Below, one piece after another: positions 15,785 to 37,085 of a DNA stretch of 64,000 nucleotides; the stretch's first letter is position 1; each line of letters opens with the position of its first letter. A program made the translations under genes and the position numbers. The notes under the pieces are model-generated. The model made no database searches, was not told the DNA's origin, and saw nothing but the letters and a program-made list of their open reading frames with translations. This stretch comes from Phycisphaerae bacterium. Lineage in GTDB: Bacteria; Planctomycetota; Phycisphaerae; JAJVII01. The DNA lies in the NCBI GenBank assembly GCA_022072085.1, contig JAJVII010000043.1, positions 446 to 64,445 on the forward strand, in the 5' to 3' direction.

Positions 15785-15799
15785 GGCACGCCGTTTGCT
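15785..15799 (+). promoter_or_regulatory. Sigma-54 -24/-12 promoter GGCACG-CCGT-TTGCT
   Basis: Matches the consensus (T)GGCACG-N4-TTGCW with correct GG/GC spacing. Lies ~40 bp upstream of the NapC-like cytochrome start. Confidence 0.7.
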
Positions 15800-20044: not shown

Positions 20045-21223
20045 ATGTCCAGCGGCCTGCAACAGCCTGAGCGCCCGCCGCGGCTTCGTGCGCCCGGCGC
20101 GTGGGCCCGCCGCCTGATGCTGGCGGCGATGGTCGCGGTCGTCGCGGCCATGGGGTGCAGCGATCCGCACACGCGATACAAGGTGCTCAGCTTCTTCTTC
20201 GACGGCGTGCCCGACCCCGACGCCCCGCCGGGGACCGGTCCTGAGGGCACAGGAGAAACGGCGTCGGCCGCCGCCAACGTCAAGCCGCAATTCATCCACG
20301 CCCCCTACCGCGACCGCAACTGTCTGCCCTGCCACGAGGTGGCCACGCCCCAGACCGGGCTGACGGCCAACATGACCATCTGCGGCAAGTGCCACGCGGT
20401 CTACGGGCAGTTCGGGGCCGCCGAGTGGGTCCACGGGCCGACCGCGCTGGGCCTGTGCGGGCTCTGCCACGACCCGCACAAGTCGGAATACCCGCACATC
20501 ATCAAGCAGGCGCAGCCGACGCTCTGCCTCAACTGCCACACCGATCCCAAGCTGCTGGGCGAGCCCTATCACGAGCTGGCGGCGCTGGGCAAGGCCGTCT
20601 GCTCCGACTGCCACGACCCGCACATGGCGGGCAACCGGCTGCTGCTGGTCGACGCCGGCAGCTACCAGCGGCGCAAGCCGGACCTGAAGCTGGCCAGCAC
20701 GCACCCGCCGTTCCGCGACCGCAAGTGCCAGATGTGCCACTCGGGCGACTCCAACGCGGTGCGTCCGAACCTCGTCCAGGAAGCCTGCCGGACCTGCCAC
20801 AAGAACATTCGCGAGCCGAGCGGCCCGAACGAGAAGGTGCACCCGGCGCTGGCCCAGGACAAGTGCCTGAACTGCCACGAGCCGCACCAGTCGACGCGGC
20901 CGCACCTGATCCGCCCGACGGCCCAGGAGATCTGCATGACCTGCCACAAGGTCGAGCAGATCAGCGGGCCGGCGCATCCGCCGGTGGTGCGGGTCGACTG
21001 CCTGCTCTGCCACCAGGGACACGAATCGACGCGGGCGCACCTGCTGCGCCGCGGCGTGCCGATCGCCGGGGAGAAGGTTCCGCCGGTGGAATGGCTGGAG
21101 GAGCCCGGACGCCCGCCGGCCAACCTGGAAACGACGCCACCCACGACGCAGCCGACGACGGCGGAAGATGACGCCGCGCCGGCGCCCGGAACGGGGCCGA
21201 CCCCCGCAGGACCCCAGCCGTGA
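20045..21223 (+). CDS. Decaheme c-type cytochrome, probable lipoprotein (candidate periplasmic or OM component of a porin-cytochrome conduit)
   Basis: Signal/lipobox-like AAMGCS, then CLPCH, CGKCH, CGLCH, CLNCH, CSDCH, CQMCH, CRTCH, CLNCH, CMTCH, CLLCH, and a Thr/Pro-rich tail (TTPPTTQPTT). Confidence 0.8.
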   Translation: MSSGLQQPERPPRLRAPGAWARRLMLAAMVAVVAAMGCSDPHTRYKVLSFFFDGVPDPDAPPGTGPEGTGETASAAANVKPQFIHAPYRDRNCLPCHEVATPQTGLTANMTICGKCHAVYGQFGAAEWVHGPTALGLCGLCHDPHKSEYPHIIKQAQPTLCLNCHTDPKLLGEPYHELAALGKAVCSDCHDPHMAGNRLLLVDAGSYQRRKPDLKLASTHPPFRDRKCQMCHSGDSNAVRPNLVQEACRTCHKNIREPSGPNEKVHPALAQDKCLNCHEPHQSTRPHLIRPTAQEICMTCHKVEQISGPAHPPVVRVDCLLCHQGHESTRAHLLRRGVPIAGEKVPPVEWLEEPGRPPANLETTPPTTQPTTAEDDAAPAPGTGPTPAGPQP

Positions 21224-23238
21224 TGCGCTCGGCGCGTTGGATCTTGGGACTGGCGGGAGCGCTGGCGGCGGCGGCGTGGCCGGCGACAGCGCGGGCGGCC
21301 GAGCCCGACGCCGGTCCGGTCCAGATTGTGCCGCTCAAGGTACTGACGCGCAGCGGCAACCTGTACGTCCGCGGCAGCATGAAGCAGAAGAAGGAGACGT
21401 TCGGCGGCGGCAGCGACTCGAACCAGAAGGACACGTACCTCGAAGAGGGTGTCGACTTGCAGTCCACCGGATACATCTATCACCCCAACCTGATGGAGTG
21501 GTTCGCCGCCTTCCGCCTGGGGCTCACCCAGCAGCAGATTGACCTGAACGAAACGCAGGAGAAGTTCCGCGGCACGCTGCTGGGCTTCGACCTGTCGGGC
21601 CTGCTGCTCCAGAAGAAGCGCGTCTCCGCGCGGGTCTTCGCATCGCGGACGCAGAACCAGGTCGACCGCAACTTCGCCGCCCGCCTGGAGGTCATCCAGA
21701 GCCGCTTCGGCGTCGAGCTGATCCGCCGGGGCAAGTTCCCCATCACGCTGCTGCTGGAGCAACTGGGCCTGACCGAGAAGGACGAGCAGCGCAACGACGA
21801 CCAGACCAGCCGCCACGCCCGGTTCACGGTCAGCGACCAGCGGAACTCCGACCATTTCACCGAGCTGATCCTGGACCTGCTGGACGTGACCGAGACGATC
21901 ACCAACATCGGCGACACGACCAGCACGACCGAGGACGCCTCCTACCGACAGCTCGAGGCGCTGCTGAACACGGTGCACCGGTTCGGGTCGGGGACCGAGA
22001 AGAACCGCTTCGCCGCGTCGGGGCGACTGCGCGACCGCACGGGGTACTTCCCCGAGCGCGAAATGGACCTGGACGCGTCGCTGGACCTGGTCCACAGCCC
22101 GACGCTGACCAGCTTCTACCACGCCGCTTACCACGACAACCGCACCGACACGGACCAGGACAAGACGACGACGCTGGACGCCGGTTTCGCCAAGCAGATT
22201 TACGAGAGCCTGAACATCGCCGGGCGCGGGAACTGGACCAGCTCGCAGTTCATCGGCGGGACGCAGAAGATCGTCGGCCTGTTCACCGACCTTCAGTACC
22301 ACAAGAAGACGCCCATCGGCCCGTACACCAGTCAGTTGTCGCTGGGCTGGCAGCGCGAGCAGGAGCAGAACGCCGGCAGCACGCGCGTCGTCCGCGACGA
22401 GTCTCACACGCTGGACGACGTCACGTTCACCCAGCTCATGCAGGCCAACGTCATCTCCGGGACCGTCCAGGTCACCAACGCCGACCACACGCAGACCTAC
22501 GTGCTGGACAGCGACTACGAGCTTCAGACGACCGGCGCCTTCACCGAAATCCGCCGTAAGACCACCGGCGACATCGCCGCCGACCAGGCGGTGCTGGTCA
22601 CCTACTCGATCGCCGTCGCCGGAGACTCGACCTTCGACACGACCACGCTGACCTGGAACAACCGGCTGGCCCTGGAGAAGGTTCCCCTGACCCCTTACTA
22701 CAACATCCACCGCCGCGCCGACAAGCTGACCGGCGGGCAGGACCCCGGCAACCTGGACACCCAGACCACGCAGTTGTTCGGACTGCAACTGGACTGGAAG
22801 GGCCTGATCGTCAACGTCGAGCATGAGACCCGCGATCAGATGCTCTACCCCTCCTCGGTCGCCGACCGCGTCCGCGCCCGTTACCAGCACCGCCTCACCC
22901 GCGACGCCGACCTGTCGCTGGGCGGACTGATCGAGAAGCTGACCTACGACAGCGCCGCCCGCTACAACCTGGGTCCCAACGGCGACCGCCTGGACACCAC
23001 GACCGCCTTCGCCCGCACGACGATCCGGCTGCGCAACTCCCTGCTGCTGCGGCTGTCGGCCGACTACATCAAGACCCAGGGCCGCACCAACGACGAGCGG
23101 GCCGAGTTCAAGGGCCAACTGGAATGGAACTACCGCAACATCGAGCTGTCGGTGGAAGCGCGGCAGAACTTCTATCAGCACGAACAGAACAAGGGCAACG
23201 AACAGGCGATCCTCTTCTCGATCAAGAGGAGGTTCTGA
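21220..23238 (+). CDS. Outer-membrane beta-barrel protein (MtrB/OmbB-like porin candidate)
   Basis: Cleavable signal peptide (…AAAWPATARAAEP). 672 aa rich in T/S/N/Q/D/R/Y with alternating amphipathic stretches, and a C-terminal …AILFSIKRRF ending in Phe, the classic OMP signature. ATGA overlap with the decaheme gene. The 952-aa ORF 20662..23520(-) is its antisense artefact. Confidence 0.6.
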   Translation: MMRSARWILGLAGALAAAAWPATARAAEPDAGPVQIVPLKVLTRSGNLYVRGSMKQKKETFGGGSDSNQKDTYLEEGVDLQSTGYIYHPNLMEWFAAFRLGLTQQQIDLNETQEKFRGTLLGFDLSGLLLQKKRVSARVFASRTQNQVDRNFAARLEVIQSRFGVELIRRGKFPITLLLEQLGLTEKDEQRNDDQTSRHARFTVSDQRNSDHFTELILDLLDVTETITNIGDTTSTTEDASYRQLEALLNTVHRFGSGTEKNRFAASGRLRDRTGYFPEREMDLDASLDLVHSPTLTSFYHAAYHDNRTDTDQDKTTTLDAGFAKQIYESLNIAGRGNWTSSQFIGGTQKIVGLFTDLQYHKKTPIGPYTSQLSLGWQREQEQNAGSTRVVRDESHTLDDVTFTQLMQANVISGTVQVTNADHTQTYVLDSDYELQTTGAFTEIRRKTTGDIAADQAVLVTYSIAVAGDSTFDTTTLTWNNRLALEKVPLTPYYNIHRRADKLTGGQDPGNLDTQTTQLFGLQLDWKGLIVNVEHETRDQMLYPSSVADRVRARYQHRLTRDADLSLGGLIEKLTYDSAARYNLGPNGDRLDTTTAFARTTIRLRNSLLLRLSADYIKTQGRTNDERAEFKGQLEWNYRNIELSVEARQNFYQHEQNKGNEQAILFSIKRRF

Positions 23239-23239: not shown

Positions 23240-24310
23240 ATGAACGCAACGAGAGTCGGACAACGCGCCCGGCGGCGCGGAGCGATCCGGATAACGCTGC
23301 TGGCGGCGGCGCTGCTGGCCGTCGCCGGGACGTCGGGCGGCTGCAAGCCCAACGAGCCGCCGCAGATTCTCCGCACCTGGCCCGCGACCGGCACGCCGCG
23401 AATCGTCCTGCGCAAGGTCATCCACGGAGCCCAGGACGTCGAGCCGCAGACCGGGCTGGCGGCGTTCATCCGCAATCTGGCCGGCCCGACCAAACAGGTC
23501 ATCCGCCGCCCGCAGGGCATCGCCGTGGACGACCGCCGGCGGCTGTTCGTCGTCGACCAGGAGAACCAGGGCGTTCACGTCCTGGACCTGGACAAGGGCG
23601 AGGTGCATTTCATCGACCGGGCCGGCAAGACGGCGTTCGTTTCGCCGGTGGCGGCCGCCTGGTGCGACGGCAAGCTGGCCGTCTCCGACAACGCCCTCAA
23701 GCAGGTCTTCTGGCTGGACGCCTCCGGCAAGCTGCTGGGGACGGTGAACGCGCCGGGCGGGTGGCGTCGGCCGACCGGACTGGCGTGGGATTCGACGTCG
23801 CACGAGCTTTACGTCGTCGACACGGTCACCGACGAGGTGCTGGTGTTCGGCGGCGACGGGCAACTGGTGCGGAAGTTCGGCCAGCCGGGGACCGGCCCGG
23901 GCCAGTTCAACGCCCCGACGCACCTGTCCGTCGCGCCCGGCGGGCCGGTGCTGGTGGCCGACTCGCTGAACTACCGCATCCAGCTTCTGGACCGCACGGG
24001 CAAGCCGCTGCTGGCGATCGGCAAGCAGGGCGACGCCAGCGGGCACATGGGCCTGCCCAAGGGCGTGGGCATCGACGCGCTGGGCCATCTCTACGTGGCC
24101 GACTCGGGCCTGGCGGCGGTGCAGATATTCGATCAGAAGGGCGACCTGCTGCTGGGCGTCGGCGAGCGAGGCAGCGGCGTGGGGGAGTTTGAAATCCCCA
24201 CGGGAATGGCTGTGCGCGGTAACATGATCTATGTCAGCGACTACTTCCTCAGTCGCGTCCTGGTGTTCGAATACGTGGGCGGGGAGGATGACCATGAACA
24301 GGCTCAGTAA
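23240..24310 (+). CDS. NHL-repeat beta-propeller lipoprotein
   Basis: Lipobox (AGTSGGC), then six NHL-like blades (…LYVADS…, …PTGLAWD…, …PTHLSVAPGGPVLVADSLNYRIQLLD…). Confidence 0.75.
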   Translation: MNATRVGQRARRRGAIRITLLAAALLAVAGTSGGCKPNEPPQILRTWPATGTPRIVLRKVIHGAQDVEPQTGLAAFIRNLAGPTKQVIRRPQGIAVDDRRRLFVVDQENQGVHVLDLDKGEVHFIDRAGKTAFVSPVAAAWCDGKLAVSDNALKQVFWLDASGKLLGTVNAPGGWRRPTGLAWDSTSHELYVVDTVTDEVLVFGGDGQLVRKFGQPGTGPGQFNAPTHLSVAPGGPVLVADSLNYRIQLLDRTGKPLLAIGKQGDASGHMGLPKGVGIDALGHLYVADSGLAAVQIFDQKGDLLLGVGERGSGVGEFEIPTGMAVRGNMIYVSDYFLSRVLVFEYVGGEDDHEQAQ

Positions 24311-25985
24311 TTTCGACTTCAGCGTCCGGATCGCGGCCTGGGCGATCTGCCTGCTGCTGCCGACGGCCCTGTCGGCGCAGGACTTCAGCAAGGTGGCCAA
24401 CACCAAGCACAACCTGACGGCCAGCGGACCCGGTCCAATCAAGGTGGCCGGCGCCGGCGAGGTCTGCTACTTCTGCCACACGCCGCACTCAGCCAACCCG
24501 ATCGCGCCGCTGTGGAACCGCCAGACCAACGGCCAATACTACGACGTCTACGGCAGTTCGACGATGAAGGCCGAAGTGCCCCAGCCGACCGGCTCGTCGC
24601 GGCTCTGCCTGAGCTGCCACGACGGGACCATCGCCCTGACGCAGACCTACAACCCGCGGGTCTCGTTCCAGGGGACGATCTACATCACCCCGCAGGACTC
24701 GGGCTATCTGGGCACGGACCTGCGCGACGACCACCCGATCAGCTTCGTCTACGACCAGGGGCTGACTACGCGCGATCCGCAGCTCCGTGACCCGCTCACG
24801 CTGCCCAAGCAGCTCCCCCTGGACGCCGAGAGCCGCGTCCAGTGCACCACCTGCCACGACGCCCACGACGACAGCCTGGGCTTCTTCCTGCGCATGGACA
24901 ACCGCGAGTCGGCCATGTGCGTGAGCTGCCACAACGTCACCGGCTGGACCGCCTCGGTCCACGCGACCTCGGGGCAGGCCGTCCCCGCCGGCAGCGGCAA
25001 GTGGGGCAACCTCACCTACGGCACCGTGCGCGAACTGGCCTGCGAAGCCTGCCACCGCCCCCACACTGCCGGCGGACGCGCCCGGCTGCTTCGCTACCAA
25101 GCCGAAGAGGACAACTGCCTGGACTGCCACGACGGCTCGGTCGCCACCAAGAACGTCTCAAGCGAGCTGACCAAATTCGGCTCGCACCGCGTCAGCCAAT
25201 ACATCAACATCCACGATCCGGCCGAGGATCCGGCGACGATGTCCGAGCACGTCGAATGCGCCGACTGCCACAACCCCCACCAGATGACGGCCACGGGCTC
25301 GGCGTCCGCGCCCAACATCAAGCCCACGATGAAGGGGGCCTCCGGATACACGCGCTTCGGCGCCTCCGTCTCGCCGGCCAACTACGAGTACGAGGTCTGC
25401 TACAAGTGCCACGCCGTGCGCAACCCGGCGACGCCGGTGGTTGACCGCGTCGATCACGACAACAACATCGCCAACGAACTGGACCCCGGCAACGTGAGCT
25501 ATCACCCCGTCGTCGCCCAGGGCCGCAACTCCAGCGTGCCCAGCCTCATCCTTCCCTGGCGGACCACGAGCATGGTCTACTGCACCGACTGCCACGGCAG
25601 CGACGGCAACACGGTCAAGGGCCCCCACGGCTCGGCTTTCTCTCCCCTGCTGGTCAAGAACTACGACTACCACGACCCCTCCAGCGAGTCGCCGCAGGCC
25701 TACGCCCTGTGCTACACCTGTCACAACCGCGACAGCATCCTGGCCAACCAGAGCTTCTCCGAGCACAACCGGCACGTTGCCGAGAAGAAGACCTCCTGCG
25801 CGATCTGCCACGACCCGCATGGCTCGCGGACCAACAAGTTCATGATCAACTTCGACCGCACCGTCGTCACCGCGACCTCCGGCGGCCAGGGACCGACCTA
25901 CACCAGCACGGGCTTGCGCAGCGGCACCTGCACCCTGCGCTGCCACAACGTCGATCACAACAACAAGGCCTACCCCGATCACTGA
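24294..25985 (+). CDS. Secreted multiheme c-type cytochrome (11 CXXCH + CX3CH), candidate extracellular or outer-surface cytochrome
   Basis: Signal peptide (…LLLPTALSAQD), then CYFCH, CLSCH, CTTCH, CVSCH, CEACH, CLDCH, CADCH, CYKCH, CTDCH, CYTCH, CAICH and CTLRCH. GGGAGG lies 7 nt upstream of ATG 24294, which overlaps the NHL gene by 17 nt. Confidence 0.8.
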   Translation: MNRLSNFDFSVRIAAWAICLLLPTALSAQDFSKVANTKHNLTASGPGPIKVAGAGEVCYFCHTPHSANPIAPLWNRQTNGQYYDVYGSSTMKAEVPQPTGSSRLCLSCHDGTIALTQTYNPRVSFQGTIYITPQDSGYLGTDLRDDHPISFVYDQGLTTRDPQLRDPLTLPKQLPLDAESRVQCTTCHDAHDDSLGFFLRMDNRESAMCVSCHNVTGWTASVHATSGQAVPAGSGKWGNLTYGTVRELACEACHRPHTAGGRARLLRYQAEEDNCLDCHDGSVATKNVSSELTKFGSHRVSQYINIHDPAEDPATMSEHVECADCHNPHQMTATGSASAPNIKPTMKGASGYTRFGASVSPANYEYEVCYKCHAVRNPATPVVDRVDHDNNIANELDPGNVSYHPVVAQGRNSSVPSLILPWRTTSMVYCTDCHGSDGNTVKGPHGSAFSPLLVKNYDYHDPSSESPQAYALCYTCHNRDSILANQSFSEHNRHVAEKKTSCAICHDPHGSRTNKFMINFDRTVVTATSGGQGPTYTSTGLRSGTCTLRCHNVDHNNKAYPDH

Positions 25986-26470
25986 CGCCGGGTCGCCGCG
26001 GCAAGGCCCTGATGACATCGCAGTCGCACTTTGCCCCCGGAGCGAGGCTGCATAGCGGGGTCTTCAGAACCTGCCGATCCGTTCCCGCGATGGGTTCCTG
26101 GGATGTCGCCAATCTCGAAATTGGGACAGGGGGAACTGGGTTTGGTGGATGCAAAGAAGGCAGAATGTAAAAATAGGGAATCCTGACAGCCTGGCCGTTG
26201 CCTGTTCGCATCCTCGCCCGTTGTCTGGCTGACGCATATCACCCAATTCGGGCAATTCTCCCCGGCGCCGTTTTCGTGATGTTCACGCCACGCATCATCG
26301 CCCCGATTAGCCGGTAATCATCCCCGCAACGCCCTCAGACCCCCATCGGCTGCCGGGATGCCTCGGATCGCCCTGAGCAGCCGGGCAAACCGCACCGCGT
26401 AAGCTCCATTACAGATTTGGACGCCTCGGCCCTTTCGCTCGCGGACGCTGGGCGTGGCCGACTGTCTGAA

Positions 26471-26484
26471 TCCCATTTTTGGGA
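26471..26484. promoter_or_regulatory. Palindrome TCCCA-TTTT-TGGGA; candidate UAS for the sigma-54 promoter at 26623
   Basis: Same half-sites and N4 spacing as 15719-15734, ~140 bp upstream of the -24 element. Confidence 0.45.
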
Positions 26485-26622
26485 CGGGTCGGAGGCGGGG
26501 AAAACCAATTTCGGAAAAGGTCGCGTGAAGCTGGGAAGACCTTGTCGGACATGCCTGTGGGCAAGTGTTCAAAGGGGCTCAGTTTGTGGCTTTTTCGGGG
26601 AAATCTACCCGAAAACGGCCTC

Positions 26623-26638
26623 TGGTACGCGGTTTGCT
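26623..26638 (+). promoter_or_regulatory. Sigma-54 -24/-12 promoter TGGTAC-GCGGT-TTGCT (identical 16-mer to 9977)
   Basis: Exact 16/16 identity with the promoter at 9977, 145 bp upstream of the first tetraheme gene. Confidence 0.75.
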
Positions 26639-26783
26639 ACATACTCCTTGTAGATCGGGGAAACGCCCCCTCCGATCAGGAGACTGACAGATGATGATGC
26701 GACCGGCTGAATATCGCAGGACCCGCGTGGGTGGCGGCGGCCAGGTTCATCAGGGCAACGGTCAGCCAACTAGGAGGTGTCTT

Positions 26784-27437
26784 GTGAGACATGTTGCCGG
26801 ACACGTATTGACTGGGCTGGCGTTCGTCGGGGTTATGGTGTGGGCCGCCCAGGCCCAGGCCCACCCGTCGACGTGCAGCAACTGTCACACGCCCCACAGC
26901 TCGGTCGACCCCAACAGTGATACGGACTACGGGGTTCCGCTGTGGAGCACGAAGTGGAACAGCGACGGCCTGCCGACGTTCACGGTCTACACCAGCCCGC
27001 TGTTCGACGCGTTGGGAACCGACATCGGCCAGCCCGACGGGCCGAGCAAGCTCTGCCTGGGATGCCACGACGGCAGCTACATCAGCTCCAAGACCGGCAA
27101 CCCGATGGGCACGACGCACAGCTTCAACCCCGGCGGCGGCTCGCTCGCCCAGGGCCAGATGACCCTGACCGAGTCGCACCCGATCAGCTTCACCTACGCG
27201 ACCGCCTACAACAATCCGAACCTGCATGTGCCCGGTTCGCTGAAGGATCCTTCCTCGCCCAGCGGACTGCCGACCGGCGGCACGATCGCCAGCGACCTGC
27301 TGGACAGCAAGGGCAAGGTGCAGTGCACCAGCTGCCATGACGTTCACAACGCCAGCGCCGTGGGCGATCCGAACCTCCGCTTCGACTACGAGGCCGATCA
27401 CGGCAAGACCATGTGCCGGGCCTGCCACAACAAGTAA
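26784..27437 (+). CDS. Small secreted tetraheme c-type cytochrome (paralogue 1)
   Basis: GTG start preceded by AGGAGGTGTCTT. Signal peptide, then CSNCH, CLGCH, CTSCH and CRACH. ORF-track 26691 is an upstream extension. ORF 26676..27428(-) is antisense. Confidence 0.75.
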   Translation: MRHVAGHVLTGLAFVGVMVWAAQAQAHPSTCSNCHTPHSSVDPNSDTDYGVPLWSTKWNSDGLPTFTVYTSPLFDALGTDIGQPDGPSKLCLGCHDGSYISSKTGNPMGTTHSFNPGGGSLAQGQMTLTESHPISFTYATAYNNPNLHVPGSLKDPSSPSGLPTGGTIASDLLDSKGKVQCTSCHDVHNASAVGDPNLRFDYEADHGKTMCRACHNK

Positions 27438-27583
27438 TCGACGCCCAGGGTTCTTAACCGCCGGCCTCGGCCGGCCGACATGGAGAGATGACGATGAACC
27501 TGGTTGAAAACAAGACGGCCAACATGGAAGGCAGCAGCCAGGCTCATCTGATCCGCGAAATGACTTTGAACAGGAGGTGTCTT

Positions 27584-28210
27584 GTGAGACACGTTGCCGG
27601 ATACGTAGTGATCGGATTGGCGGTTCTGGCTGTCGTGATGCAGCCCGCCCCGGTCCTGGCGGCTCATAGCGACTACGGGTGCGCCGGGTGCCACACCCCG
27701 CACTATGCGACCAAGGCCAATGACGCCGAAGGAACCTGGGGCGTCCCGCTGTGGAACAACGTGAACCTGAACGACCAGGCCCTGCCCACGTTCACGCTCT
27801 ACAACAGCCCGACCTTCGACGTTCTGGACACCCAGATCACCCAGCCCGACGGGCCGAGCAAGCTCTGCCTGGGTTGCCATGACGGGACCTACTCCTACAT
27901 GTCGACCGAGCACAGCTTCGGCGCCGGCGGCGGGATGAGCCTGGAAACGTCACACCCCATCAGCTTCGTCTACAGCGACGCGCTGGCCAGCGATCCCAAG
28001 CTCCAGCACGCCGGCGAGCTGAAGCCGCCGTCCACGACGGCCAGCGGGCTGACCGCCAGCGGCACCATCGCGACCGACATGCTCGACGCCAAGAGCAAGA
28101 TGCAGTGCACCAGTTGCCATGACGTGCACACCAGCGGCATCGGTGAGACCCTGCTCCGCAAGAGTTACACCGACGGCAAAACGCTGTGCGTCACCTGCCA
28201 CAACAAGTGA
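27584..28210 (+). CDS. Small secreted tetraheme c-type cytochrome (paralogue 2)
   Basis: Near-identical translation-initiation context (CAGGAGGTGTCTTGTGAGACACGTTGCCGGATAC). Signal peptide, then CAGCH, CLGCH, CTSCH and CVTCH. Confidence 0.75.
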   Translation: MRHVAGYVVIGLAVLAVVMQPAPVLAAHSDYGCAGCHTPHYATKANDAEGTWGVPLWNNVNLNDQALPTFTLYNSPTFDVLDTQITQPDGPSKLCLGCHDGTYSYMSTEHSFGAGGGMSLETSHPISFVYSDALASDPKLQHAGELKPPSTTASGLTASGTIATDMLDAKSKMQCTSCHDVHTSGIGETLLRKSYTDGKTLCVTCHNK

Positions 28211-28251
28211 CAGTGATCGGCAGGCGACCTGACTCGCACCCTTGATCCCCC

Positions 28252-28290
28252 GGGCCGCAGGCGGTCACCCCGCCTGCGGCCCTCTTCTTT
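28252..28290 (+). terminator. Rho-independent terminator (GGGCCGCAGGCGG-tcacc-CCGCCTGCGGCCC followed by TCTTCTTT)
   Basis: A 13-bp perfect GC-rich stem and 5-nt loop with a T-rich tract, 42 nt after the stop of the second tetraheme gene. Confidence 0.7.
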
Positions 28291-28474: not shown

Positions 28475-29623
28475 ATGAGCCGATTCGCGACACCCGTGAC
28501 GGTCCTGGTTCTGACGCTGGCCGCCGCCGCGCTGCTGCCGCTGGCCGGCTGCGAGAAGCCGGAGGAGTCCGGTCCGGCCAAGCTCGTCTTCTATCCCACG
28601 CCGCCCGACCCGCCGCGCTACCAGTTCCTGACCAGCTTCTCGGACATCCAGGAGTGGATCAAGCCCACCCAGACCAGCCTGAAGGACTGGATCGTCGGCG
28701 GACCCACCGAATCCGAGCAGGCGATCAGCAAGATCAAAAACCCCTACGGCGTCGCCTGCCACCAGGGCAAGCTCTACATCTGCGACCTGGGGTTGACGCG
28801 GCTGGACGTGATCGACCTGGTCAAGGGGACCTACACGACGCTGGGCGACAAGCGGACGCTGCCCGACCCGATGAGCATCGAGATCACGCCTGACGGCACG
28901 AAATACGTCTGCGACAAGGCGCTCAAGCAGATCGTCGTCTTCGACGCCAACGACCAGTTCGTCTCGGCCCTGGGCGACCCGAAGGCCTGCACCCCGTCGG
29001 ACGTGGCCGTCGGCGCTGACGAACTCTACGTCGTTGACCAGCTCGGCGCGAAAGTCCAGGTCTGGTCGCGCGACGGCCAACTCAAGCGCGTCATCGGCGG
29101 GGTGGACAAGAACAGCGGCCAACTCATCAAGCCCGTGAGCATTGTGCTCGGCCAGGACAACCAGCTCTTCGTCTCGGACATGATCGCCAACACGATCTTC
29201 GTCTTCGACACCCAGGGCAAGTATCTCCGCAAGATCGGCGCGCCCGGCGACACGACCGGCCACTTCGCCCGCATCAAGGGGATGTGCCTGGACCCGGCCG
29301 GCCGACTCTATGTCGCCGACTCGACCTGGGACACGCTCCAGATCTTCACCCAGGACGGCCAGTTGCTGCTGGCGATCCGCGACCTGACCGAGACCCCGCA
29401 CCAGATGACCCAGCCGACCTGGGTGGCCGCCGACGGCTCCCCGGCCACCATGGAAGTGTTCAGGAAATACGCCGCCCCAGGCTTCGACCCGCAGTTCGTC
29501 GTCTTCGTCTCCAACGAGTTCGGCAAGAACAAGATCACCGTGCTGGCCTACGGCGAAGGCCGACTGCAAGCCGTCCCGGTCCCCGCGGCTGCCCCGACCA
29601 CGCAGCCGGCATCGGCCGACTGA
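28475..29623 (+). CDS. NHL-repeat / beta-propeller lipoprotein
   Basis: AGGAGG lies 6 nt upstream of ATG 28475. Lipobox LAGC. Repeated …LYV(C/A)D… and …QL(F/Y)V(S/V)D… blade motifs. ORF-track 28289 is an extension. Confidence 0.7.
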   Translation: MSRFATPVTVLVLTLAAAALLPLAGCEKPEESGPAKLVFYPTPPDPPRYQFLTSFSDIQEWIKPTQTSLKDWIVGGPTESEQAISKIKNPYGVACHQGKLYICDLGLTRLDVIDLVKGTYTTLGDKRTLPDPMSIEITPDGTKYVCDKALKQIVVFDANDQFVSALGDPKACTPSDVAVGADELYVVDQLGAKVQVWSRDGQLKRVIGGVDKNSGQLIKPVSIVLGQDNQLFVSDMIANTIFVFDTQGKYLRKIGAPGDTTGHFARIKGMCLDPAGRLYVADSTWDTLQIFTQDGQLLLAIRDLTETPHQMTQPTWVAADGSPATMEVFRKYAAPGFDPQFVVFVSNEFGKNKITVLAYGEGRLQAVPVPAAAPTTQPASAD

Positions 29624-29996: not shown

Positions 29997-30012
29997 GTCT
30001 CAGGGGTGAGAC
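29997..30012. promoter_or_regulatory. Perfect palindrome GTCTCA-GGGG-TGAGAC, candidate regulator site upstream of the ccm sigma-54 promoter
   Basis: 16-bp palindrome with an N4 spacer, ~105 bp upstream of the -24 element at 30117. Confidence 0.4.
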
Positions 30013-30116
30013 TGCGGGGGAAAGCGGGGCAAGAAGATGCTGGACCGCCAACACATAAAACACTATCATTACATAGGTTAAGAAATCTCCGTCGAGCCCG
30101 TCGAAAACCCTGTGAT

Positions 30117-30132
30117 TGGCATGCCGCTTGCA
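30117..30132 (+). promoter_or_regulatory. Sigma-54 -24/-12 promoter TGGCAT-GCCGC-TTGCA
   Basis: Textbook TGGCAY-N5-TTGCW match, 42 bp upstream of the ccmE start. Confidence 0.75.
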
Positions 30133-30173
30133 ACTACACTACTTGCAGAGGGCGGCTGACAGGGAGCCTTGCG

Positions 30174-30593
30174 ATGCGACACATGAAGATCAAGCTGGGA
30201 GTCGGAGCGGCCGTCGTGCTGCTGGCGGTCGGGTTTCTGGCCTACGCCGGCGTCCGCAAAGCCCAGGTTTATTACATGGAAGTCGACCAGTTCCTGGCCG
30301 ACCACGACGCCCAGGGCCAGCGGGTCCGGCTGTGCGGCACGGTGGCTGACGGGTCAATCCAGCGCAACGAGTCCGACCTCTCCCTGAAGTTCGAGCTGGC
30401 CGGCCGCGAGCACCGGATCCCCGTCCACTACAGCGGCCAGGTGCCCGACCTGTTTGCCGCCGGCGGCGAGGTGGTCGTGGAAGGCACGCTGGGCGGCGAC
30501 GGGGTGTTCGAGGCCGCCACGCTGATGACCAAGTGCGCCAGCAAGTACAAGCCCGAGGATTACCCGGCCAAGAAGACGGAGACGGGTAAATGA
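30174..30593 (+). CDS. ccmE: Cytochrome c maturation heme chaperone CcmE, variant with Cys replacing the heme-binding His (CxxxY type)
   Basis: N-terminal TM anchor followed by an OB-fold. The VRLCGTVADGS…GQVPDLFAAGGEVVVEGTL…LMTKCASKY block aligns with the proteobacterial CcmE …LPDLFREGQGVVVQG…LAKHDENY, with C where the covalent heme His sits. ORF-track 30006 is an extension. Confidence 0.8.
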   Translation: MRHMKIKLGVGAAVVLLAVGFLAYAGVRKAQVYYMEVDQFLADHDAQGQRVRLCGTVADGSIQRNESDLSLKFELAGREHRIPVHYSGQVPDLFAAGGEVVVEGTLGGDGVFEAATLMTKCASKYKPEDYPAKKTETGK

Positions 30594-32962
30594 CCTCCGC
30601 GTCCTTGGGCGCCATTTCGCTCCTGATCGCAACGGTGATCGCGGCGGCGACGGCCCTGGCGGCCGTGGCGGCGGTCGCGTTCCGCCGTGACGGGCTGGCC
30701 CGCCTGGCCCGGCTGGGCCTGCTGCTGCTGGCGGTCGCGTTCACCCTCTCCTGCGGCATCCTGATCGAGGCCTTTGTTCATAACCGCTTCGTCATCCGCT
30801 ACGTCGCCGACTATTCCGACACCGCCCTGTCGATCGGCTACAAGGTCGCGGGCCTGTGGGCCGGTCAGGCCGGCAGCCTGCTGCTGTGGGGCTGGCTGGT
30901 CGCCGCCATGGGCCTGTTGGCAGCGTTCGGACTGCGCCGCCGCGAGCCGGCGATGCAGGGCGGGCTGATCCTGACGGTCGCGCTGGTCTGCGGCTTCTTC
31001 GGCCTGGTGATGGTCGCGGTGGACGAGGCCCGGCCCTTCACAACCTACGACGCCATCGCCCGCGTCGGGCAGGAGCAGATGCTCGACGCCTTCTCGCCGG
31101 GGGACCGCTCCCGCATCGGCGAGTGCGCCAACGCCCTCCAGAACGCCGTGATGGGCCTGGCGGCCCAGAAGGACAAGCCCTGGAGCGGCACGATCGCGCG
31201 GGTGACTTTCAAGTCCGAGTCGGTCCCCGTCCCGCCCGACCCGTCGCACCCCGGGCTTCACACGCATCAGGAATACGCCGCCTACATCTACCTGGCTGAC
31301 GGGCAGCCCGGCGGCAGCCAGGCGCTGCTGAAGGCGCTGTCAGCCCGTGTGGGCCGGCTGGCCCCGGCCAGCGAGGGCGTCGGCCTCAAGCCGCTGCTCC
31401 AGAACCCGGCGATGGTGATTCATCCGCCGATGCTGTTCGTCGGCTACGCGGGGTTCACGCTGCCGCTGGCGCTGCTGGTGGGCGGGCTGCTGGCAGGCGG
31501 GCTGGACCACGACTGGATCGCCCGCGCCCGCCGCTGGACGGTGGTGAGCTGGCTGTTCCTGGGCGTGGGCATCGTGCTGGGGATGTGGTGGGCCTACGTC
31601 GAACTGGGCTGGGGCGGCTACTGGGCGTGGGATCCGGTCGAGAACGCCTCGCTGCTGCCCTGGTTCGTGGGCACGGCGCTGCTGCACGCGCTGATCGTGA
31701 TGCGCCACCGCCGCCTGTTCAAGCCGATCGTCGCGATCCTCACGCTGCTGACTTTCGCGCTGTGCATCTTCGCGACCTACCTGGTCCGCAGCGGCGTGAT
31801 CCAGTCGGTTCACGCGTTCGGCACGAGCGTTATCGGCGACTGGTTCCTGTGGTTCCTGATCGGCTCGATCGTCGTTTCAGCCGTGGCGATGGTCGTCCGT
31901 TTCCGCGTGCTGGCGCCCGAGGGCGAGGCCCGCTGGGGCGGACGCGAGTGGGCATTGGCCGCCGCCTGCGCCCTGCTCGTGCTGATGTGCGGGTTCACGC
32001 TGGTCGGCACGACTTGGCCGCTCATTTACAAGGCCCTGTTCGGCAAGATGGGCCTGGCGATGGACCAATCCTTCTATAACAACCGCGTGCTGCTGCTGTG
32101 GGGCCTGCCCACTGTGGCGCTGATGGCGTTCGGCCCGCTGATCGCCTACGGCAAGAAGATCCCCGACGACCTCGTGCGGCTGCTGGCCTTCTGCGGCGTG
32201 GCCGCGGCGGTGGCGGTCGGCCTCCCCTACCTGGCCGGCGTAAAGAGCCTCTGGGCGGGCGTCGGGCTGGCGATCCTCGGCCTGACCTTCGGGCTGGTCG
32301 TCTACGACTTCGTGCGGGCGATGTCGCTGGAGCGGGGCCAGGGCCCGGGCGGGGTGGGCCTGGCGTTCCGCATATTCGACGCCAACCACCGCCGCTACGG
32401 CGCCCAGCTCGCCCACGCGGGCGTCGCCCTGTTCATGATGGGCGTGCTGGGCACGGCCCTGTTCAGCACCGACCAGAAGGTGCTGCTGCGGCCGCACCAG
32501 ACCGTCGCCGCGACCAACCCGCTGACCGGCGGCGAATACACCGTCACCTACGACCAGTTCGTGGAGAAGGCCGCCGACACCTACGACTACCAGGCGGTCG
32601 TCCTCGCCGTGGACGCCGGCGGCGGACTCATCCGTCTGACGCCCGAGCAGCGGTCCTACTACTCGCACGTCGGCGAGACCTACGGCGAGATCGACATGAA
32701 CTCCACCGCCGCCCGCGACGTCTACGTCGCCCTGATCGGCGTGGGCAACGGCGGGCTGGTGCGGCTGAACATCATGGTCAAGCCGCTGGCGATGTGGCTG
32801 TGGATCGGAGCGACGGCGATCGCCCTGGGCGGGCTGCTCTGCCTCGTGCCGCCGCTGATTCCCGCGTTCAACCCCGCGACGGCCCGTCAGGGGGACCGCA
32901 AACCCGAACGACCCCGGCCGACGCCGGCCAAGGCCCAGTCGCCCTCGACAGCACGGACCTGA
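30590..32962 (+). CDS. ccmF: Cytochrome c-type biogenesis protein CcmF (heme lyase, WWD domain)
   Basis: 790-aa polytopic membrane protein with a WWD signature (WWAYVELGWGGYWAWDPVENASLLPW). ATGA overlap with ccmE. Confidence 0.85.
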   Translation: MTSASLGAISLLIATVIAAATALAAVAAVAFRRDGLARLARLGLLLLAVAFTLSCGILIEAFVHNRFVIRYVADYSDTALSIGYKVAGLWAGQAGSLLLWGWLVAAMGLLAAFGLRRREPAMQGGLILTVALVCGFFGLVMVAVDEARPFTTYDAIARVGQEQMLDAFSPGDRSRIGECANALQNAVMGLAAQKDKPWSGTIARVTFKSESVPVPPDPSHPGLHTHQEYAAYIYLADGQPGGSQALLKALSARVGRLAPASEGVGLKPLLQNPAMVIHPPMLFVGYAGFTLPLALLVGGLLAGGLDHDWIARARRWTVVSWLFLGVGIVLGMWWAYVELGWGGYWAWDPVENASLLPWFVGTALLHALIVMRHRRLFKPIVAILTLLTFALCIFATYLVRSGVIQSVHAFGTSVIGDWFLWFLIGSIVVSAVAMVVRFRVLAPEGEARWGGREWALAAACALLVLMCGFTLVGTTWPLIYKALFGKMGLAMDQSFYNNRVLLLWGLPTVALMAFGPLIAYGKKIPDDLVRLLAFCGVAAAVAVGLPYLAGVKSLWAGVGLAILGLTFGLVVYDFVRAMSLERGQGPGGVGLAFRIFDANHRRYGAQLAHAGVALFMMGVLGTALFSTDQKVLLRPHQTVAATNPLTGGEYTVTYDQFVEKAADTYDYQAVVLAVDAGGGLIRLTPEQRSYYSHVGETYGEIDMNSTAARDVYVALIGVGNGGLVRLNIMVKPLAMWLWIGATAIALGGLLCLVPPLIPAFNPATARQGDRKPERPRPTPAKAQSPSTART

Positions 32963-32981
32963 CGACGGAAGGAAGCGACCC

Positions 32982-34166
32982 ATGAAACGCATCGCATACA
33001 CTCTCGCGGCCGCGCTGGCCGGCCTCCTGCTGATCGCCGGTTCGCCACTCCGCGCGGACGACGCCCCCCAGGCCCCGACGACCCAGCCCGACGCGACCGG
33101 CCAGACGCCGCGCCTGCCCGCGGGCCACCCGGCCATCGGCGACACGTCCCGCCTGCCGGCCGGGCATCCGGCCATCGGCGGACAGGGCAAGCTGCCGGCC
33201 GGCCACCCGGCGATCGGCGGGACGGGCGGCCTGCCCGCGGGCCATCCGGCCCTGGGTCCCAACGGCAAGATGCCCGCCGGCCATCCGCAGGTCGAGGGCG
33301 TGACTCCCGAGCAGGCCCCGCCCTTCCCCACCAGCCAGCCCGAGACCGTCCGCGGCGTGCTGATGATAACCGCGACCCAGGGCACCGCGGGCGCCGCCGT
33401 CCCGGCCGGCGACGACGTGCTGGTCGACCTGATGTACGGCGGGTTCTCCATCCGCCAGCTCCGCGGCAAGCTGGACAGCGGCGGGCGGCTGATCCTCAGC
33501 GACGTCCCCGTCGGCGTGAAGGTGATGCCGATGGTCACCGTGCGGCACGACAACCACGACTTCCGCCAGACCGGCCCGCTGATGTCGCCGGAGGACCCCG
33601 ACCGGGCCGTCCGCATCGCCGTCTACCAGACCACCGAGACCGCCCCGGCCTGGAAGGTGTCCATGCACCACCTGATCCTCACCAGGATGCCTGACGGCAA
33701 GTCCTATCGCGTTCGTGAGATGCTGGTCGTCGAGAACCCCACCGACAAGGTCTGGATCGGCCCGATGGACGCCAAGGGCCAGCGCGTGACCATGCACATC
33801 CCGCTGCCGGTCAACACCGACGGCCGGGCACAGGTCGACGCGACGGTGGCTGTGCCCCCGGGCAGCTCGCAGCACACGATCGCCTACGCGATCCCGGTCA
33901 AGGACGGCAAGGCCGTCGTCGAGCTGGTCGCCCCGGCCCCGACCGACCGGCTGGTCGTGGTCAAGGCCGACGACGACGGCGCGAAGGTGAGCCTGGCGGG
34001 CCTGGAGGTCGGCCAGCAGATGCAGATCGACAAGGGGCGCACGATGACCTTCTACCAGGCCGAGTCGCTCAAGGCCGGGCAGAAGGTGTCGTTGACGCTG
34101 GAGCTGTCCGACAAGCCCGCCCCGCCCAAGACCAACGAGGCGTGGCGGACCGGCGGCGGCAAGTGA
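32982..34166 (+). CDS. Secreted protein with five 13-aa xxxLPAGHPAIGx repeats (His/Pro-rich), unknown function, inserted in the ccm cluster
   Basis: Signal peptide, a 39-bp tandem DNA repeat encoding (T/S/G)xxLPAGHPAIGx five times, then a ~250-aa domain shared with the next gene (…ETAPAWKVSMHHLILTRMPDGKSYRVREMLVVENP…). Confidence 0.55.
   Translation: MKRIAYTLAAALAGLLLIAGSPLRADDAPQAPTTQPDATGQTPRLPAGHPAIGDTSRLPAGHPAIGGQGKLPAGHPAIGGTGGLPAGHPALGPNGKMPAGHPQVEGVTPEQAPPFPTSQPETVRGVLMITATQGTAGAAVPAGDDVLVDLMYGGFSIRQLRGKLDSGGRLILSDVPVGVKVMPMVTVRHDNHDFRQTGPLMSPEDPDRAVRIAVYQTTETAPAWKVSMHHLILTRMPDGKSYRVREMLVVENPTDKVWIGPMDAKGQRVTMHIPLPVNTDGRAQVDATVAVPPGSSQHTIAYAIPVKDGKAVVELVAPAPTDRLVVVKADDDGAKVSLAGLEVGQQMQIDKGRTMTFYQAESLKAGQKVSLTLELSDKPAPPKTNEAWRTGGGK
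33100..33295. repeat. 39-bp tandem repeat x5 inside the CDS (encodes LPAGHPAIG units)
   Basis: Five successive CTGCC(C/G)GC(C/G)GGCCA(C/T)CCGGC(C/G)ATCGGC-containing units. Confidence 0.6.
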
Positions 34167-34170
34167 ACCC

Positions 34171-35208
34171 ATGACGCGATCCGGGGAACAGCCCGTGTTT
34201 GGACAAGCTTACTTTCGATTCGGCGCGATGGGGATGGGAGTGGCGGCGGCGTGGCTGGCGTTCGCGCCGGCGGCGTCGGCCCAGCCCCAGGCCGACCCGA
34301 ACCCGACGCACATGACCGGCTCGATCCCCGGCACGCTGCTGGTCATGGTCCAGCAGGGAACCAAGGGGGCGCCGGCCATCGCGGGCGGCCAGGTGGCCGT
34401 GGACCTGGTGCACGGCCGGCAGTCGCACTGGCACAAGACGGCCGAGTTAAGGGAGGACGGGCGGGTGCTGTTGGAGCAGATCCCGATCACCCTGCCGATC
34501 CAGCCCCAGGTGACATTCGCCTACAAAGGCATCGACTACACGCTGGTGGGCAAGGCCATGACTCCCGGCGCCCCCGACGGCGTCGTGCGGATCACCGTGT
34601 TCGAGCCGACCGAGACCGAGCCGGCCTGGGTCGTGAAGATGCACCATATCATCATCACGCCGACGCCCGACGGGCAGGCCTACAGGGTCGAGGAGAGCCT
34701 GGTGGTCGAGAACCCCGACGACCATACCTGGATCGGCAGACCCGACGGCCACGGCGGGCACGTCACGATGCGGCGGGCCCTGCCGGAGAACCTGGACAAC
34801 AAGCCCGAGTTCGTCAGCGATCAGCCGCTGCTGGGCGGCACGTCGAACTTCAAACTCGGCTACGTCATCCCGGTCCGCGACCGCAAGGCCGCCCTGCGAG
34901 TGCCGATGGTCGCGCCGACGCGGCAGGTAGAGGTCATGGTGACCGCCGACGAGGGCACACAGGTCGAGGCGGTGGACCTCACGCCCGACCCGTCCATGAA
35001 CCAGATGACCGGCAGAGAGTGCTACAAGGCCACGGACCTGGCGACCGGGCAGACGGTGGGCGTCTCGCTGGCGCTGCCGGCAGCCAAGGCGGTCGCCACG
35101 GCCGCCGGCGGCTCGCCCCTGCGCAAGATGCTCGCGCTGATCGGCGGAGCGATCGTGCTGCTGGGCCTGGGCATGTTCTGGTTCAGGAAGAAAGAGAAGA
35201 AGGCGTAG
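34171..35208 (+). CDS. Paralogue of 32982..34166 without the HP repeats, with a C-terminal TM anchor (unknown function)
   Basis: Shares …TE(T/P)(A/E)PAW(K/V)V(S/K)MHH(L/I)I(L/I)T…DG(K/Q)(S/A)YRV(R/E)E…VVENP… with the previous gene. Signal-like MGMGVAAAWLAFAPAASA gives an alternative start at ~34228. C-terminal helix LALIGGAIVLLGLGMFWF. Confidence 0.5.
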   Translation: MTRSGEQPVFGQAYFRFGAMGMGVAAAWLAFAPAASAQPQADPNPTHMTGSIPGTLLVMVQQGTKGAPAIAGGQVAVDLVHGRQSHWHKTAELREDGRVLLEQIPITLPIQPQVTFAYKGIDYTLVGKAMTPGAPDGVVRITVFEPTETEPAWVVKMHHIIITPTPDGQAYRVEESLVVENPDDHTWIGRPDGHGGHVTMRRALPENLDNKPEFVSDQPLLGGTSNFKLGYVIPVRDRKAALRVPMVAPTRQVEVMVTADEGTQVEAVDLTPDPSMNQMTGRECYKATDLATGQTVGVSLALPAAKAVATAAGGSPLRKMLALIGGAIVLLGLGMFWFRKKEKKA

Positions 35209-35212
35209 CGTC

Positions 35213-35971
35213 ATGAGCGTCGTGCTGGCTGCATCCGACACCGCGAAGGCCCCGCCGCCGACCCGGTCGCTCCCGGCGGTGCAGGCGCTGGAGATCAGCA
35301 AGCGGATCGACGGCCGACCGATCCTCCAGGACGTCTGCATCGACATCGCCAAGGGGCGCTACGTCGCCCTGCTGGGGGCCAACGGCGCGGGCAAGACCAC
35401 ACTGATGAAACTGCTCTCGATGCTCGCCCCGCCCAGCGGCGGGCAGCTCCACCTGTTCGGCCAGCGGGTCACGCGCGAGGGGTCGCCGAAGCTCCGGGCG
35501 AGGATCGGGCTGATCGGCCATCAGCCGATGCTCTACGGCGACCTGACGGCGCGGGAGAACCTGCTGCTGTTCGGGCGGCTCTACGGCGTGTCCGACGTCG
35601 CCGACCGGGCCGAGGCGCTGCTGAAGCGCGTGGACCTGGCCGGCCGCGCGGACGACCCGGTGAAGGCTTACAGCCGCGGCATGACCCAGCGGGCCTCCAT
35701 CGCCCGGGCCCTGATGCACGGGCCGGACCTGCTGCTGGCCGACGAGCCCTTCAGCGGGCTGGACGCCCCCTCTAACCAGATGCTGGAGGAGCTGCTGGCC
35801 GAGTTGCACCGCGACGGCAAGACGATCGTGCTGGCCCATCACGACATCGAGCAGAGCCTGCGGGTCGCCGAGCAGGCCGTCGTGCTCCGCCGCGGACGCG
35901 TGGTCGTCGACCGCCCGACCCGGCAGCTCGACCGCGAGACGACGCTGGCGGAAATGACCGGGCAGGCATGA
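35213..35971 (+). CDS. ccmA: Heme exporter ATP-binding protein CcmA (ABC ATPase)
   Basis: Walker A GANGAGKTT, signature FSGLD?-like LSGG region (PFSGLD), Walker B LLLADEP. Position and family consistent with ccmA. Confidence 0.75.
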   Translation: MSVVLAASDTAKAPPPTRSLPAVQALEISKRIDGRPILQDVCIDIAKGRYVALLGANGAGKTTLMKLLSMLAPPSGGQLHLFGQRVTREGSPKLRARIGLIGHQPMLYGDLTARENLLLFGRLYGVSDVADRAEALLKRVDLAGRADDPVKAYSRGMTQRASIARALMHGPDLLLADEPFSGLDAPSNQMLEELLAELHRDGKTIVLAHHDIEQSLRVAEQAVVLRRGRVVVDRPTRQLDRETTLAEMTGQA

Positions 35972-36231
35972 ATACCGAATGGCGAATGTCGAATGGATGA
36001 CGAAACCCGAATGCCGAATGTCGAATGGCCCGCCGGCGGCGCAAGCTTCCGGTTCGTCATTGGTGCTTCGTCATTCTTTCGTCATTGGGAAATCGGGGCT
36101 TCCGAAAGGCCCCGGGGTCTGGCTCGCTTTTCGCCGGCTCGGAGGCGTAAAGCGTGCCTGACCCCCTCTCCCAGGGGCCTTTCAGAAACCCCCATTCGTC
36201 ATTCGTCATTGCCCCCCGAAGGGGGCCTGCC
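35972..36231. repeat. MITE-like CGAATG word-repeat element (left CCGAATGGCGAATGTCGAATGG…, right …CATTCGTCATTCGTCATTG) with internal hairpins
   Basis: Forward GAATG-type repeats at 35975-36030 and reverse-complement CGTCATT/CATTCG repeats at 36045-36210, plus small GC hairpins (GGGGCTTCCGAAAGGCCCC, CCCCCCGAAGGGGGC). Fills the ccmA-ccmB spacer. Same family as 7391-7706. Confidence 0.55.
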
Positions 36232-36921: not shown

Positions 36922-37085
36922 GGTCAATGACGAATGTCGAATTCCGAATGACGAAGGAATGGCGAAGCACCAATGACGAATGGAAGGCGCGCGTCGCTCT
37001 CGGCCCGTGGGCATTCGTGATTCGGGCTTCGTCATTCACTCGACATTCGACATTCATCACTCGACATTGCCCGTAGGAGTCTTCC
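36922..37085. repeat. MITE-like CGAATG word-repeat element (third copy), ccmB-ccmC spacer
   Basis: AATGACGAATGTCGAATTCCGAATGACGAAGGAATGG… is followed by its inverted counterpart …ATTCGTGATTCGGGCTTCGTCATTCACTCGACATTCGACATTCATCACTCGACATTG. Confidence 0.55.

Follow-up and report, generated by a model that had tools for sequence, protein, structure and literature searches.

Do the two small cytochromes encoded side by side in a Phycisphaerae genome belong with the cytochromes that polymerize into extracellular nanowires? The question is raised by a 64,000-nucleotide stretch of the Phycisphaerae bacterium assembly GCA_022072085.1 (contig JAJVII010000043.1, positions 446 to 64,445), hereafter the window, in which an initial annotation had described two tetraheme cytochrome genes as a sigma-54 transcription unit of their own and as candidates for secreted or filament-forming cytochromes in the manner of OmcE. 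The spread of cytochrome nanowires, their secretion and the control of their length are open questions, and, to our knowledge, structures of such wires come from Geobacter, Desulfuromonas and two archaea alone. Phycisphaerae are abundant in sediments, and as far as we know they are not known for extracellular electron transfer (EET). We find that the two proteins are very likely members of the OmcE family encoded in an OmcE-type cluster, and from the sequence of the locus we conclude that this Phycisphaerae lineage, which has been little studied, probably makes OmcE-like extracellular "wires".

The tandem cytochromes and their relationship to OmcE

The tetraheme cytochrome genes form a same-strand tandem pair on the plus strand within the region 26200-28500. 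Cytochrome 1 (26784..27437) has 217 aa and cytochrome 2 (27584..28210) has 208 aa; each contains four CXXCH motifs, and a full-length comparison of the pair gives 52% identity. Both begin with a Sec-type signal peptide, which ends in AQA before H in cytochrome 1 and in VLA before A in cytochrome 2. The two tandem paralogues of about 210 aa with signal peptides described by the initial annotation are indeed present. Both genes open with GTG, the first behind the Shine-Dalgarno (SD) sequence AGGAGG (26772-26777) and the second in the same SD/GTG context. The claim that the two initiation contexts are almost identical holds: AGGAGGTGTCTTGTGAGACAYGTTGCCGGAYAC stands around both starts (26772-26804 and 27572-27604), and the roughly 38 nt there (26772-26809 and 27572-27609) match at about 36 of 38 positions, against about 60% in the flanking DNA. 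GGAGGTG-N4-GTGARGAC is found as well in L082, one of four related contigs that carry this subfamily of small cytochromes (L082 to L085). Such near-identity around the starts of paralogues might result from gene conversion, or the translation-initiation region may be under selection. The leader of about 95 nt (26691-26783; 27488-27583) can also be aligned between the two gene copies, so the duplication unit took in the leader.

The initial annotation had further held that the open reading frame (ORF) track starts both genes too early. In-frame ATGs at 26691 and 27494, upstream of the GTG starts, each have an SD-like sequence of their own. The metagenome-assembled genome (MAG) from which the window comes annotates a protein 100% identical to cytochrome 1 (BIFFINMI_03145, P0001) at 217 aa, and cytochrome 2 at 238 aa from an upstream ATG. 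We favor the GTG starts over the longer ORFs because the family median length is 203 aa, the annotation of cytochrome 1 has 217 aa, the SD is perfect, GGAGGTG-N4-GTG is conserved in L082 and the extensions N-terminal to the GTG starts are poorly conserved. The SD-like ATGs are possible alternatives, and the GTG starts, favored as they are, are unproven. The mature proteins are the same with either choice.

Pfam finds in the small cytochromes only a generic 'doubled CXXCH' motif. Using phmmer against the PDB, we found that protein 1 matches 9YUQ (E 1.8e-7, residues 29-217), and a family profile of 43 members matches 9YUQ (1.9e-15) and 7TFS (4.6e-15) over nearly the full length, with the next match at E 0.11. 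Entry 7TFS is the G. sulfurreducens OmcE filament (GSU0618), and 9YUQ is the OmcE nanowire bundle of D. soudanensis WTL (DSOUD_2954; bioRxiv 10.1101/2025.10.22.684050). By BLASTP, the solved OmcE subunits are 33% and 29% identical to protein 2 (E 6e-15 and 6e-16), and comparisons of the small cytochromes with the solved subunits overall give 28-33% identity (E 6e-16 to 9e-11). Aligning the family with a canonical set of nine small OmcE homologues, hhalign returned a probability of 100% (E 1.5e-44), with an alignment that starts at the first CXXCH and runs through to the C-terminus. Like the OmcE subunits 7TFS and 9YUQ, the window proteins are tetraheme, have about 200-230 aa with a Sec signal, and show homology that begins at the first CXXCH and extends as far as the C-terminal CHxK.

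Exactly eight histidines are conserved in the family, four in the CXXCH motifs plus H27, H38, H132 and H188. Three of the four distal ones (H38, H132 and H188) align with OmcE histidines, in the motifs CHTPH, (D/S)HP(I/V) and CH(D/K)VH, whereas H27 is conserved but stands in a shorter, non-aligning N-terminal arm. Small OmcE proteins of canonical clusters, for example in the loci L018 and L010, bridge the gap to the solved subunits: their identity with the window proteins is 36-41%, and the L018 protein is 41% identical to G. sulfurreducens OmcE, as the L010 protein is to D. soudanensis OmcE. The candidacy put forward by the initial annotation is borne out as OmcE homology by profile, by hhalign and by the gene neighborhood described below, and it is from this homology that we infer filament formation itself.

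The gene cluster around the cytochrome pair

The minimal OmcE cluster has been described as comprising OmcE itself, a large beta-barrel and a pair each of multiheme cytochromes and beta-propeller lipoproteins (bioRxiv 10.1101/2025.10.22.684050, Petersen et al. 2025), and the same preprint takes a barrel together with a propeller lipoprotein nearby as the mark of nanowire-capable OmcE homologues. The window holds all components of this cluster, including the two multiheme cytochromes, two NHL propeller lipoproteins and large beta-barrel. Upstream of the pair on the plus strand lie a 10-heme cytochrome with the lipobox-like signal AAMGC, a cluster partner (cyt392; 20045..21223); a protein of 672 aa that has a signal peptide and ends in Phe (orf672; 21220..23238); NHL beta-propeller 1, a probable lipoprotein (23240..24310); and a 584-aa cytochrome with 11 CXXCH motifs whose residues 77-235 are OmcE-like (cyt584; 24231..25985). 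Downstream on the same strand lies NHL beta-propeller 2, a lipoprotein with the lipobox LAGC (28475..29623). Pfam gave no match on orf672, which we modeled with AlphaFold2 (AF2) as a large outer-membrane beta-barrel; the model is all-beta with a predicted local distance difference test score (pLDDT) of 84. Its best PDB matches are Cir, the FimD/PapC ushers, MtrB and LptD, and since their TM-scores are low (0.3-0.38) it is the fold class alone that they support. The modeled 672-aa barrel is a putative secretion pore or anchor.

We compared the window with 80 loci fetched with the G. sulfurreducens and D. soudanensis OmcE proteins as queries from a collection of one genome per species. Every component of the window cluster has homologues among these OmcE loci. 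In them the order OmcE (one or two copies)-NHL2-small cytochrome-~670-aa ORF-NHL1-~585-aa cytochrome recurs, in Opitutales, Planctomycetota/Tepidisphaeraceae, Bacteroidota, Desulfuromonadaceae, Geobacteraceae and Thiodiazotropha among others, with cytochrome labels that are approximate because cytochrome profiles absorb one another in the iterative hidden Markov model comparison. The gene order of the window is permuted with respect to the canonical one: two blocks are swapped, each intact, so that OmcE-NHL2 follows cytochrome-barrel-NHL1-cytochrome. The Bacteroidetes locus L010 shares the local order cytochrome-OmcE-NHL2 with the window. Of the four related contigs of the subfamily, L083, L084 and L085 have the same cluster beside their small cytochrome genes, and the short contig L082 has five tandem copies followed by NHL2 and cytochrome c maturation (ccm) genes only. 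L083 repeats the window gene order all the way from the ImcH-like cytochrome to ccmC.

The window also differs from the canonical cluster in having System I ccm genes immediately downstream (30006..37756, +). Among these ccmE, ccmF, ccmA and ccmB were identified; the ORF at 36980-37756 has no Pfam match and is named ccmC by its position relative to L083 only. The ccm gene order is kept in L082 and L083 too. Judged by its gene content, the window from 9977 to 46099 is a large EET island. Upstream it comprises genes for a cytochrome with 13 hemes (10025), a TPR-thioredoxin protein (11488), a cytochrome b/b6 in two parts (12990, 13849), a 5-heme cytochrome (14496) and an ImcH-like NapC/NirT 11-heme cytochrome (15823), and beyond the ccm genes an 8-heme cytochrome (37934), a fusion of a CbcL-like cytochrome with cytochrome b561 (39147), a further NHL propeller (42276) and a 24-heme cytochrome of 1051 aa (42944).

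Other cytochrome systems resemble the cluster in part. As in MtrAB/C and the Geobacter Pcc conduits, a large outer-membrane barrel gene stands beside periplasmic or lipoprotein multiheme cytochromes, and MtrB is among the best structural matches of the barrel model (6r2q_B, TMq 0.38). In contrast to these conduits, there is no sequence-family match, the TM-scores are low, and the window cluster adds NHL propellers and OmcE-like subunits, which Mtr and Pcc systems lack. The Desulfovibrio ferrophilus clusters DFE_0448-0451 and DFE_0461-0465, likened here by description only, also group genes for multiheme cytochromes and NHL beta-propeller lipoproteins; the extracellular proteome shows an enrichment of DFE_0465 (PMC8322314), and Phycisphaerae MAGs are reported to contain 'DFE variants' (bioRxiv 10.1101/2022.03.26.485925).

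The promoter, upstream sites and terminator of the pair

A sigma-54-type promoter, TGGTACGCGGTTTGCT, with GG at -24 and GC at -12, precedes the pair at 26623..26638 (+), and a second, identical copy stands at 9977-9992, upstream of the 13-heme cytochrome operon. Scanning the window for the sigma-54 consensus TGGYACG-N4-TTGCW (TGGYACGNNNNTTGCW) with at most one mismatch gave six sites against 0.8 expected, a number that 0 of 100 shuffles reached. All six stand before the probable start of a gene on their own strand. The other four lie at 3287-3302 (-), upstream of a 157-aa ORF of unknown function that is divergent from an activator gene; at 3530-3545 (+), upstream of this NtrC-type activator gene; at 15784-15799, upstream of the ImcH-like cytochrome; and at 30117-30132, upstream of ccmE. 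A -24/-12 motif is also found 110-240 bp upstream of the first small-cytochrome gene in all four related loci (TGGTCCGCCGCTTGCT in L082, TGGCATCCAGTTTGCT in L083, TGGCACCGTAGTTGCT in L084 and TGGTACGCAGGTTGCA in L085), and this conservation across loci is the strongest support for the predicted sigma-54 control. Canonical OmcE genes share the feature, with strict sigma-54 motifs less than 400 bp upstream of the homologues in L002, L025, L030, L045 and L059.

A regulator that could act on these sites is encoded in the window. The gene at 3591..5132 (or from 3438) on the plus strand specifies an NtrC-type enhancer-binding response regulator with Response_reg, Sigma54_activat (E 1e-66) and HTH_8 domains, a histidine kinase is encoded at 7707-9056, and an NtrC-type activator is encoded in L084 as well. 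With a sigma-54-type promoter before its own gene, the activator may possibly be autoregulated, and the distribution of the sites suggests one sigma-54 regulon spanning the whole electron-transfer island. It could instead be that the motif before the pair is a chance match or a non-functional repeat and that some other promoter serves the pair together with the cytochrome operon upstream, a reading to which the predicted 5' untranslated region of about 135 nt and the lack of a detected terminator after the 584-aa cytochrome gene would lend themselves. We consider this very improbable, given the excess of window sites, each in front of a gene, the motif's persistence in L082 to L085 despite protein identities of about 50%, and the activators encoded in the window and in L084. 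On this evidence the promoter proposed in the initial annotation, identical to another copy in the window, is upheld.

About 150 bp upstream of the promoter lies the palindrome ATCCCATTTTTGGGAC (26470..26485, +; core TCCCATTTTTGGGA at 26472-26485). Palindromes at an equal distance from the promoter align with it in L083 (TCTCATTTTTGAGA) and L082 (TTCCCTGTTTTGGGA), in a TCYCA-N4-TGRGA-like form. Scored across the window as an upstream activating sequence (UAS), the motif TTCCCA-N4-TGGGAA, which was derived from the same regions it was scored on, has three matches against 1.2 expected, a number equaled in 11 of 100 shuffles and not significant. The UAS-like palindrome noted earlier is present, and we retain it as a candidate UAS for its alignment across genomes alone, the window-wide count giving it no support. 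Between palindrome and promoter there is also a 15-nt inverted repeat with 80% complementarity (26508..26552, +), the left arm of which falls in a block partly conserved in L083.

Downstream of the pair, an intrinsic-terminator-like hairpin at 28252..28290 (+) consists of a 13-bp stem with 12 GC pairs (28252-28282) followed by TCTTCTTTG, an interrupted U-tract. Its fold z-score of -3.7 agrees with the strong terminator claimed at this place, and a sigma-70-like promoter for the NHL propeller 2 gene follows at 28426-28453. The initial annotation had also pointed to a GC hairpin in the 146-nt spacer between the two cytochrome genes as a processing or attenuation site. This hairpin exists (27460..27475, +; 6-bp stem, no U-tract), but the fold of its region does not beat that of shuffled sequence (z -0.7), and no similar hairpin was seen by eye in the spacer of L083, the sole other intergenic spacer read, so we rejected the proposed role. 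Rfam and tRNA scans of the window returned nothing. With promoter, two genes and terminator in a row, a separate sigma-54 unit is plausible.

Filament subunits, carriers or divided roles

If these elements act together, the following course of events can be proposed. The NtrC-type activator of the island would bind the upstream palindromes and fire the sigma-54 promoter at 26623, and the resulting bicistronic mRNA would end at the 28252 terminator. Sec would export both precursors, the signal peptide presumably being cut just before the conserved N-terminal His, and the adjacent Ccm system would attach four hemes to each protein; the eight conserved histidines, to go by their conservation and by the OmcE alignment, would provide four bis-His hemes. 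Synteny suggests that the 672-aa barrel, the NHL lipoproteins and the 10- and 11-heme cytochromes carry electrons through the outer membrane and also transport the small cytochromes to it or hold them there. At the cell surface these may then stack head to tail into a continuous, insulated heme chain as in OmcE, a step proposed from homology only. That the small cytochromes are divergent OmcE-family members in an OmcE-type assembly cluster and work by this full mechanism, polymerization included, has in our judgment slightly better than an even chance.

Several observations weigh against this proposal. Polymerization and the extracellular location are both extrapolated from homology, and the identity to the solved OmcE subunits on which it draws is just 28-33%. 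The N-terminal His of the window family is mature residue 1 or 2 (consensus AAHSDxGC) and precedes the first heme Cys by 4-9 residues, compared with 12-30 residues for the xHD(L/F)S motif of most canonical OmcE homologues. In hhalign this short segment does not align with the canonical arm, and since the arm is both short and non-aligning, contacts between subunits could differ or be absent. The N-terminal module of cyt584 is closer to solved OmcE (37%, E 8.5e-27) than the small proteins are. OmcE-like four-heme modules occur as domains of larger cytochromes, and the OmcE superfamily is huge (4665 representative clusters at E<=1e-3, 2333 at E<=1e-10), so that homology is no guarantee of filaments. 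The AF2 monomer of protein 1, built on the 43-sequence alignment, has a pLDDT of 54.5 and returned 0 matches from Foldseek against the PDB. In the locus of Planctomycetales bacterium ZRK34 (L081; CP050848.1, 315392-337410) there is no small OmcE-like gene. What OmcE filaments do in the cell is in dispute as well (PMC13194489, PMC11077965). As to the AF2 model, OmcE gives no fold matches beyond itself and close homologues (PMC9473688), so the empty Foldseek result is no refutation; the poor model is as expected for heme-free models of mostly-coil cytochromes and is uninformative. The ZRK34 locus, apparently from an isolate, does contain a cytochrome-barrel-NHL-cytochrome block together with an ImcH/CbcL-like set.

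The main rival reading is that the small cytochromes are monomeric tetraheme carriers that do not polymerize. They would be periplasmic shuttles, or loosely bound to the surface, would serve a porin-cytochrome complex of the barrel and the 10- and 11-heme cytochromes, and would be OmcE homologues by descent. Eight histidines for four hemes fit a self-contained bis-His tetraheme protein equally well, and the shortened arm, the very large family and the use of the module within larger cytochromes are all in keeping with carriers, as is the presence among the barrel's closest structural matches of MtrB, the sheath of a trans-outer-membrane cytochrome conduit. We regard this reading as possible but doubtful, since by sequence and position the window genes are orthologues of the small OmcE gene in canonical clusters, both family members with solved structures (9YUQ and 7TFS) are filaments, and a barrel and a propeller lipoprotein, the published sign of nanowire capacity, are found nearby.

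The copy number of the small-subunit gene raises a further question. The family of the window differs from OmcE in its anciently diverged tandem copies, two to five in the subfamily loci. Window paralogues are 63-66% identical to the matching L082 copies and 56-59% identical within a genome; cross-genome pairs being closer than within-genome pairs, the duplication is old and predates the split from the L082 genome. No genomic context is on record for a third paralogue, P0006. The paralogues might have different roles in one filament, either as a heteropolymer or as a major subunit with a minor one that initiates, adapts or caps it, with the cyt584 module as the membrane-proximal base. Such a division would suit the age of the paralogues, the recurrence of two to five tandem copies in related loci, the OmcE-like N-terminus of cyt584 and the prediction by the authors of the D. 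soudanensis structure of an OmcE-like 'stopper' subunit, ideally co-located with the major subunit (bioRxiv 10.1101/2025.10.22.684050). We think it unlikely, because no residue pattern separates paralogue classes, the copies in L083 resemble one another most and the solved OmcE filaments are homopolymers. A conserved 'ninth histidine' marking one class was sought in the family and not found.

The OmcE-like module is not confined to the small proteins. In cyt584, residues 77-235 form a four-heme module with an NTKHNLT arm, a canonical OmcE-like unit, and most of the OmcE loci examined encode a homologue of about 585 aa. A five-CXXCH OmcE-like paralogue lies beside a four-heme one in L018 (9134-9802), L025 (9782-10510), L067 (7521-8315) and L079 (3775-4635), matching a '5-heme OmcE-like' class mentioned in a 2025 preprint (bioRxiv 10.1101/2025.10.22.684050). 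Iron- and manganese-oxidizing Betaproteobacteria have OmcE-like modules and NHL propellers as well, in L022, L029, L041 and L042 (Sphaerotilus, Leptothrix, Piscinibacter) and in L067 (Sideroxydans), and their modules are often fused into far larger cytochromes (1174 aa in L022). Given their occurrence in such oxidizers, OmcE-like modules may serve electron uptake too.

The N-terminus of the window proteins recalls a second filament cytochrome. Their mature N-terminus, xHS..C..CH..H, resembles FHSGGVAECEGCHTMH of OmcS (GSU2504, 6EF8), a likeness in a short motif only, and the inter-subunit ligand of OmcS is His16, the CxxCHxxH histidine. OmcS differs in having six hemes and 407 aa, and our family profile has no significant similarity to it (6EF8; E 0.11, one short stretch). 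According to published work, heme packing and the ligation of a heme by a His of the neighboring subunit are common to OmcS and OmcE (PMC9473688), and the companion genes of OmcS, the osc assembly operon, have been proposed to act in secretion (Shen et al. 2025, as cited in PMC13194489). A bolder proposal is that the short-arm Phycisphaerae proteins are a distinct nanowire type in which diverged paralogues co-assemble, as a heteropolymer or as a major subunit with an initiator or 'stopper', and in which the cyt584 module docks the filament to the barrel. Their OmcS-like N-terminus on an OmcE-like body would then be a sequence bridge between families so far linked by heme geometry only. We offer this as a speculation with a small chance of being right.

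OmcE filaments, their cluster and the wide spread of OmcE homologues are already known. Earlier work has pointed out multiheme 'EET' gene sets in MAGs of Phycisphaerae (bioRxiv 10.1101/2022.03.26.485925), and our literature search found no link between Phycisphaerae and cytochrome filaments. The host, of the Planctomycetota (Phycisphaerae), falls outside the five phyla listed for OmcE (bioRxiv 10.1101/2025.10.22.684050). By its sequence features the window locus is a new, divergent OmcE-type case, marked by its short arm, its old tandem paralogues and a conserved architecture of predicted sigma-54 and UAS sites. It places a complete OmcE-type cluster, with sigma-54 control of its own and adjacent heme maturation, in Phycisphaerae, and its ancient subunit paralogues are co-located OmcE look-alikes of the kind proposed as possible filament terminators. 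The locus is thus a concrete system for testing models of nanowire assembly, for which ZRK34 is a possible experimental handle, and it raises the possibility that electron transfer to minerals or between species involves a Planctomycetota lineage.

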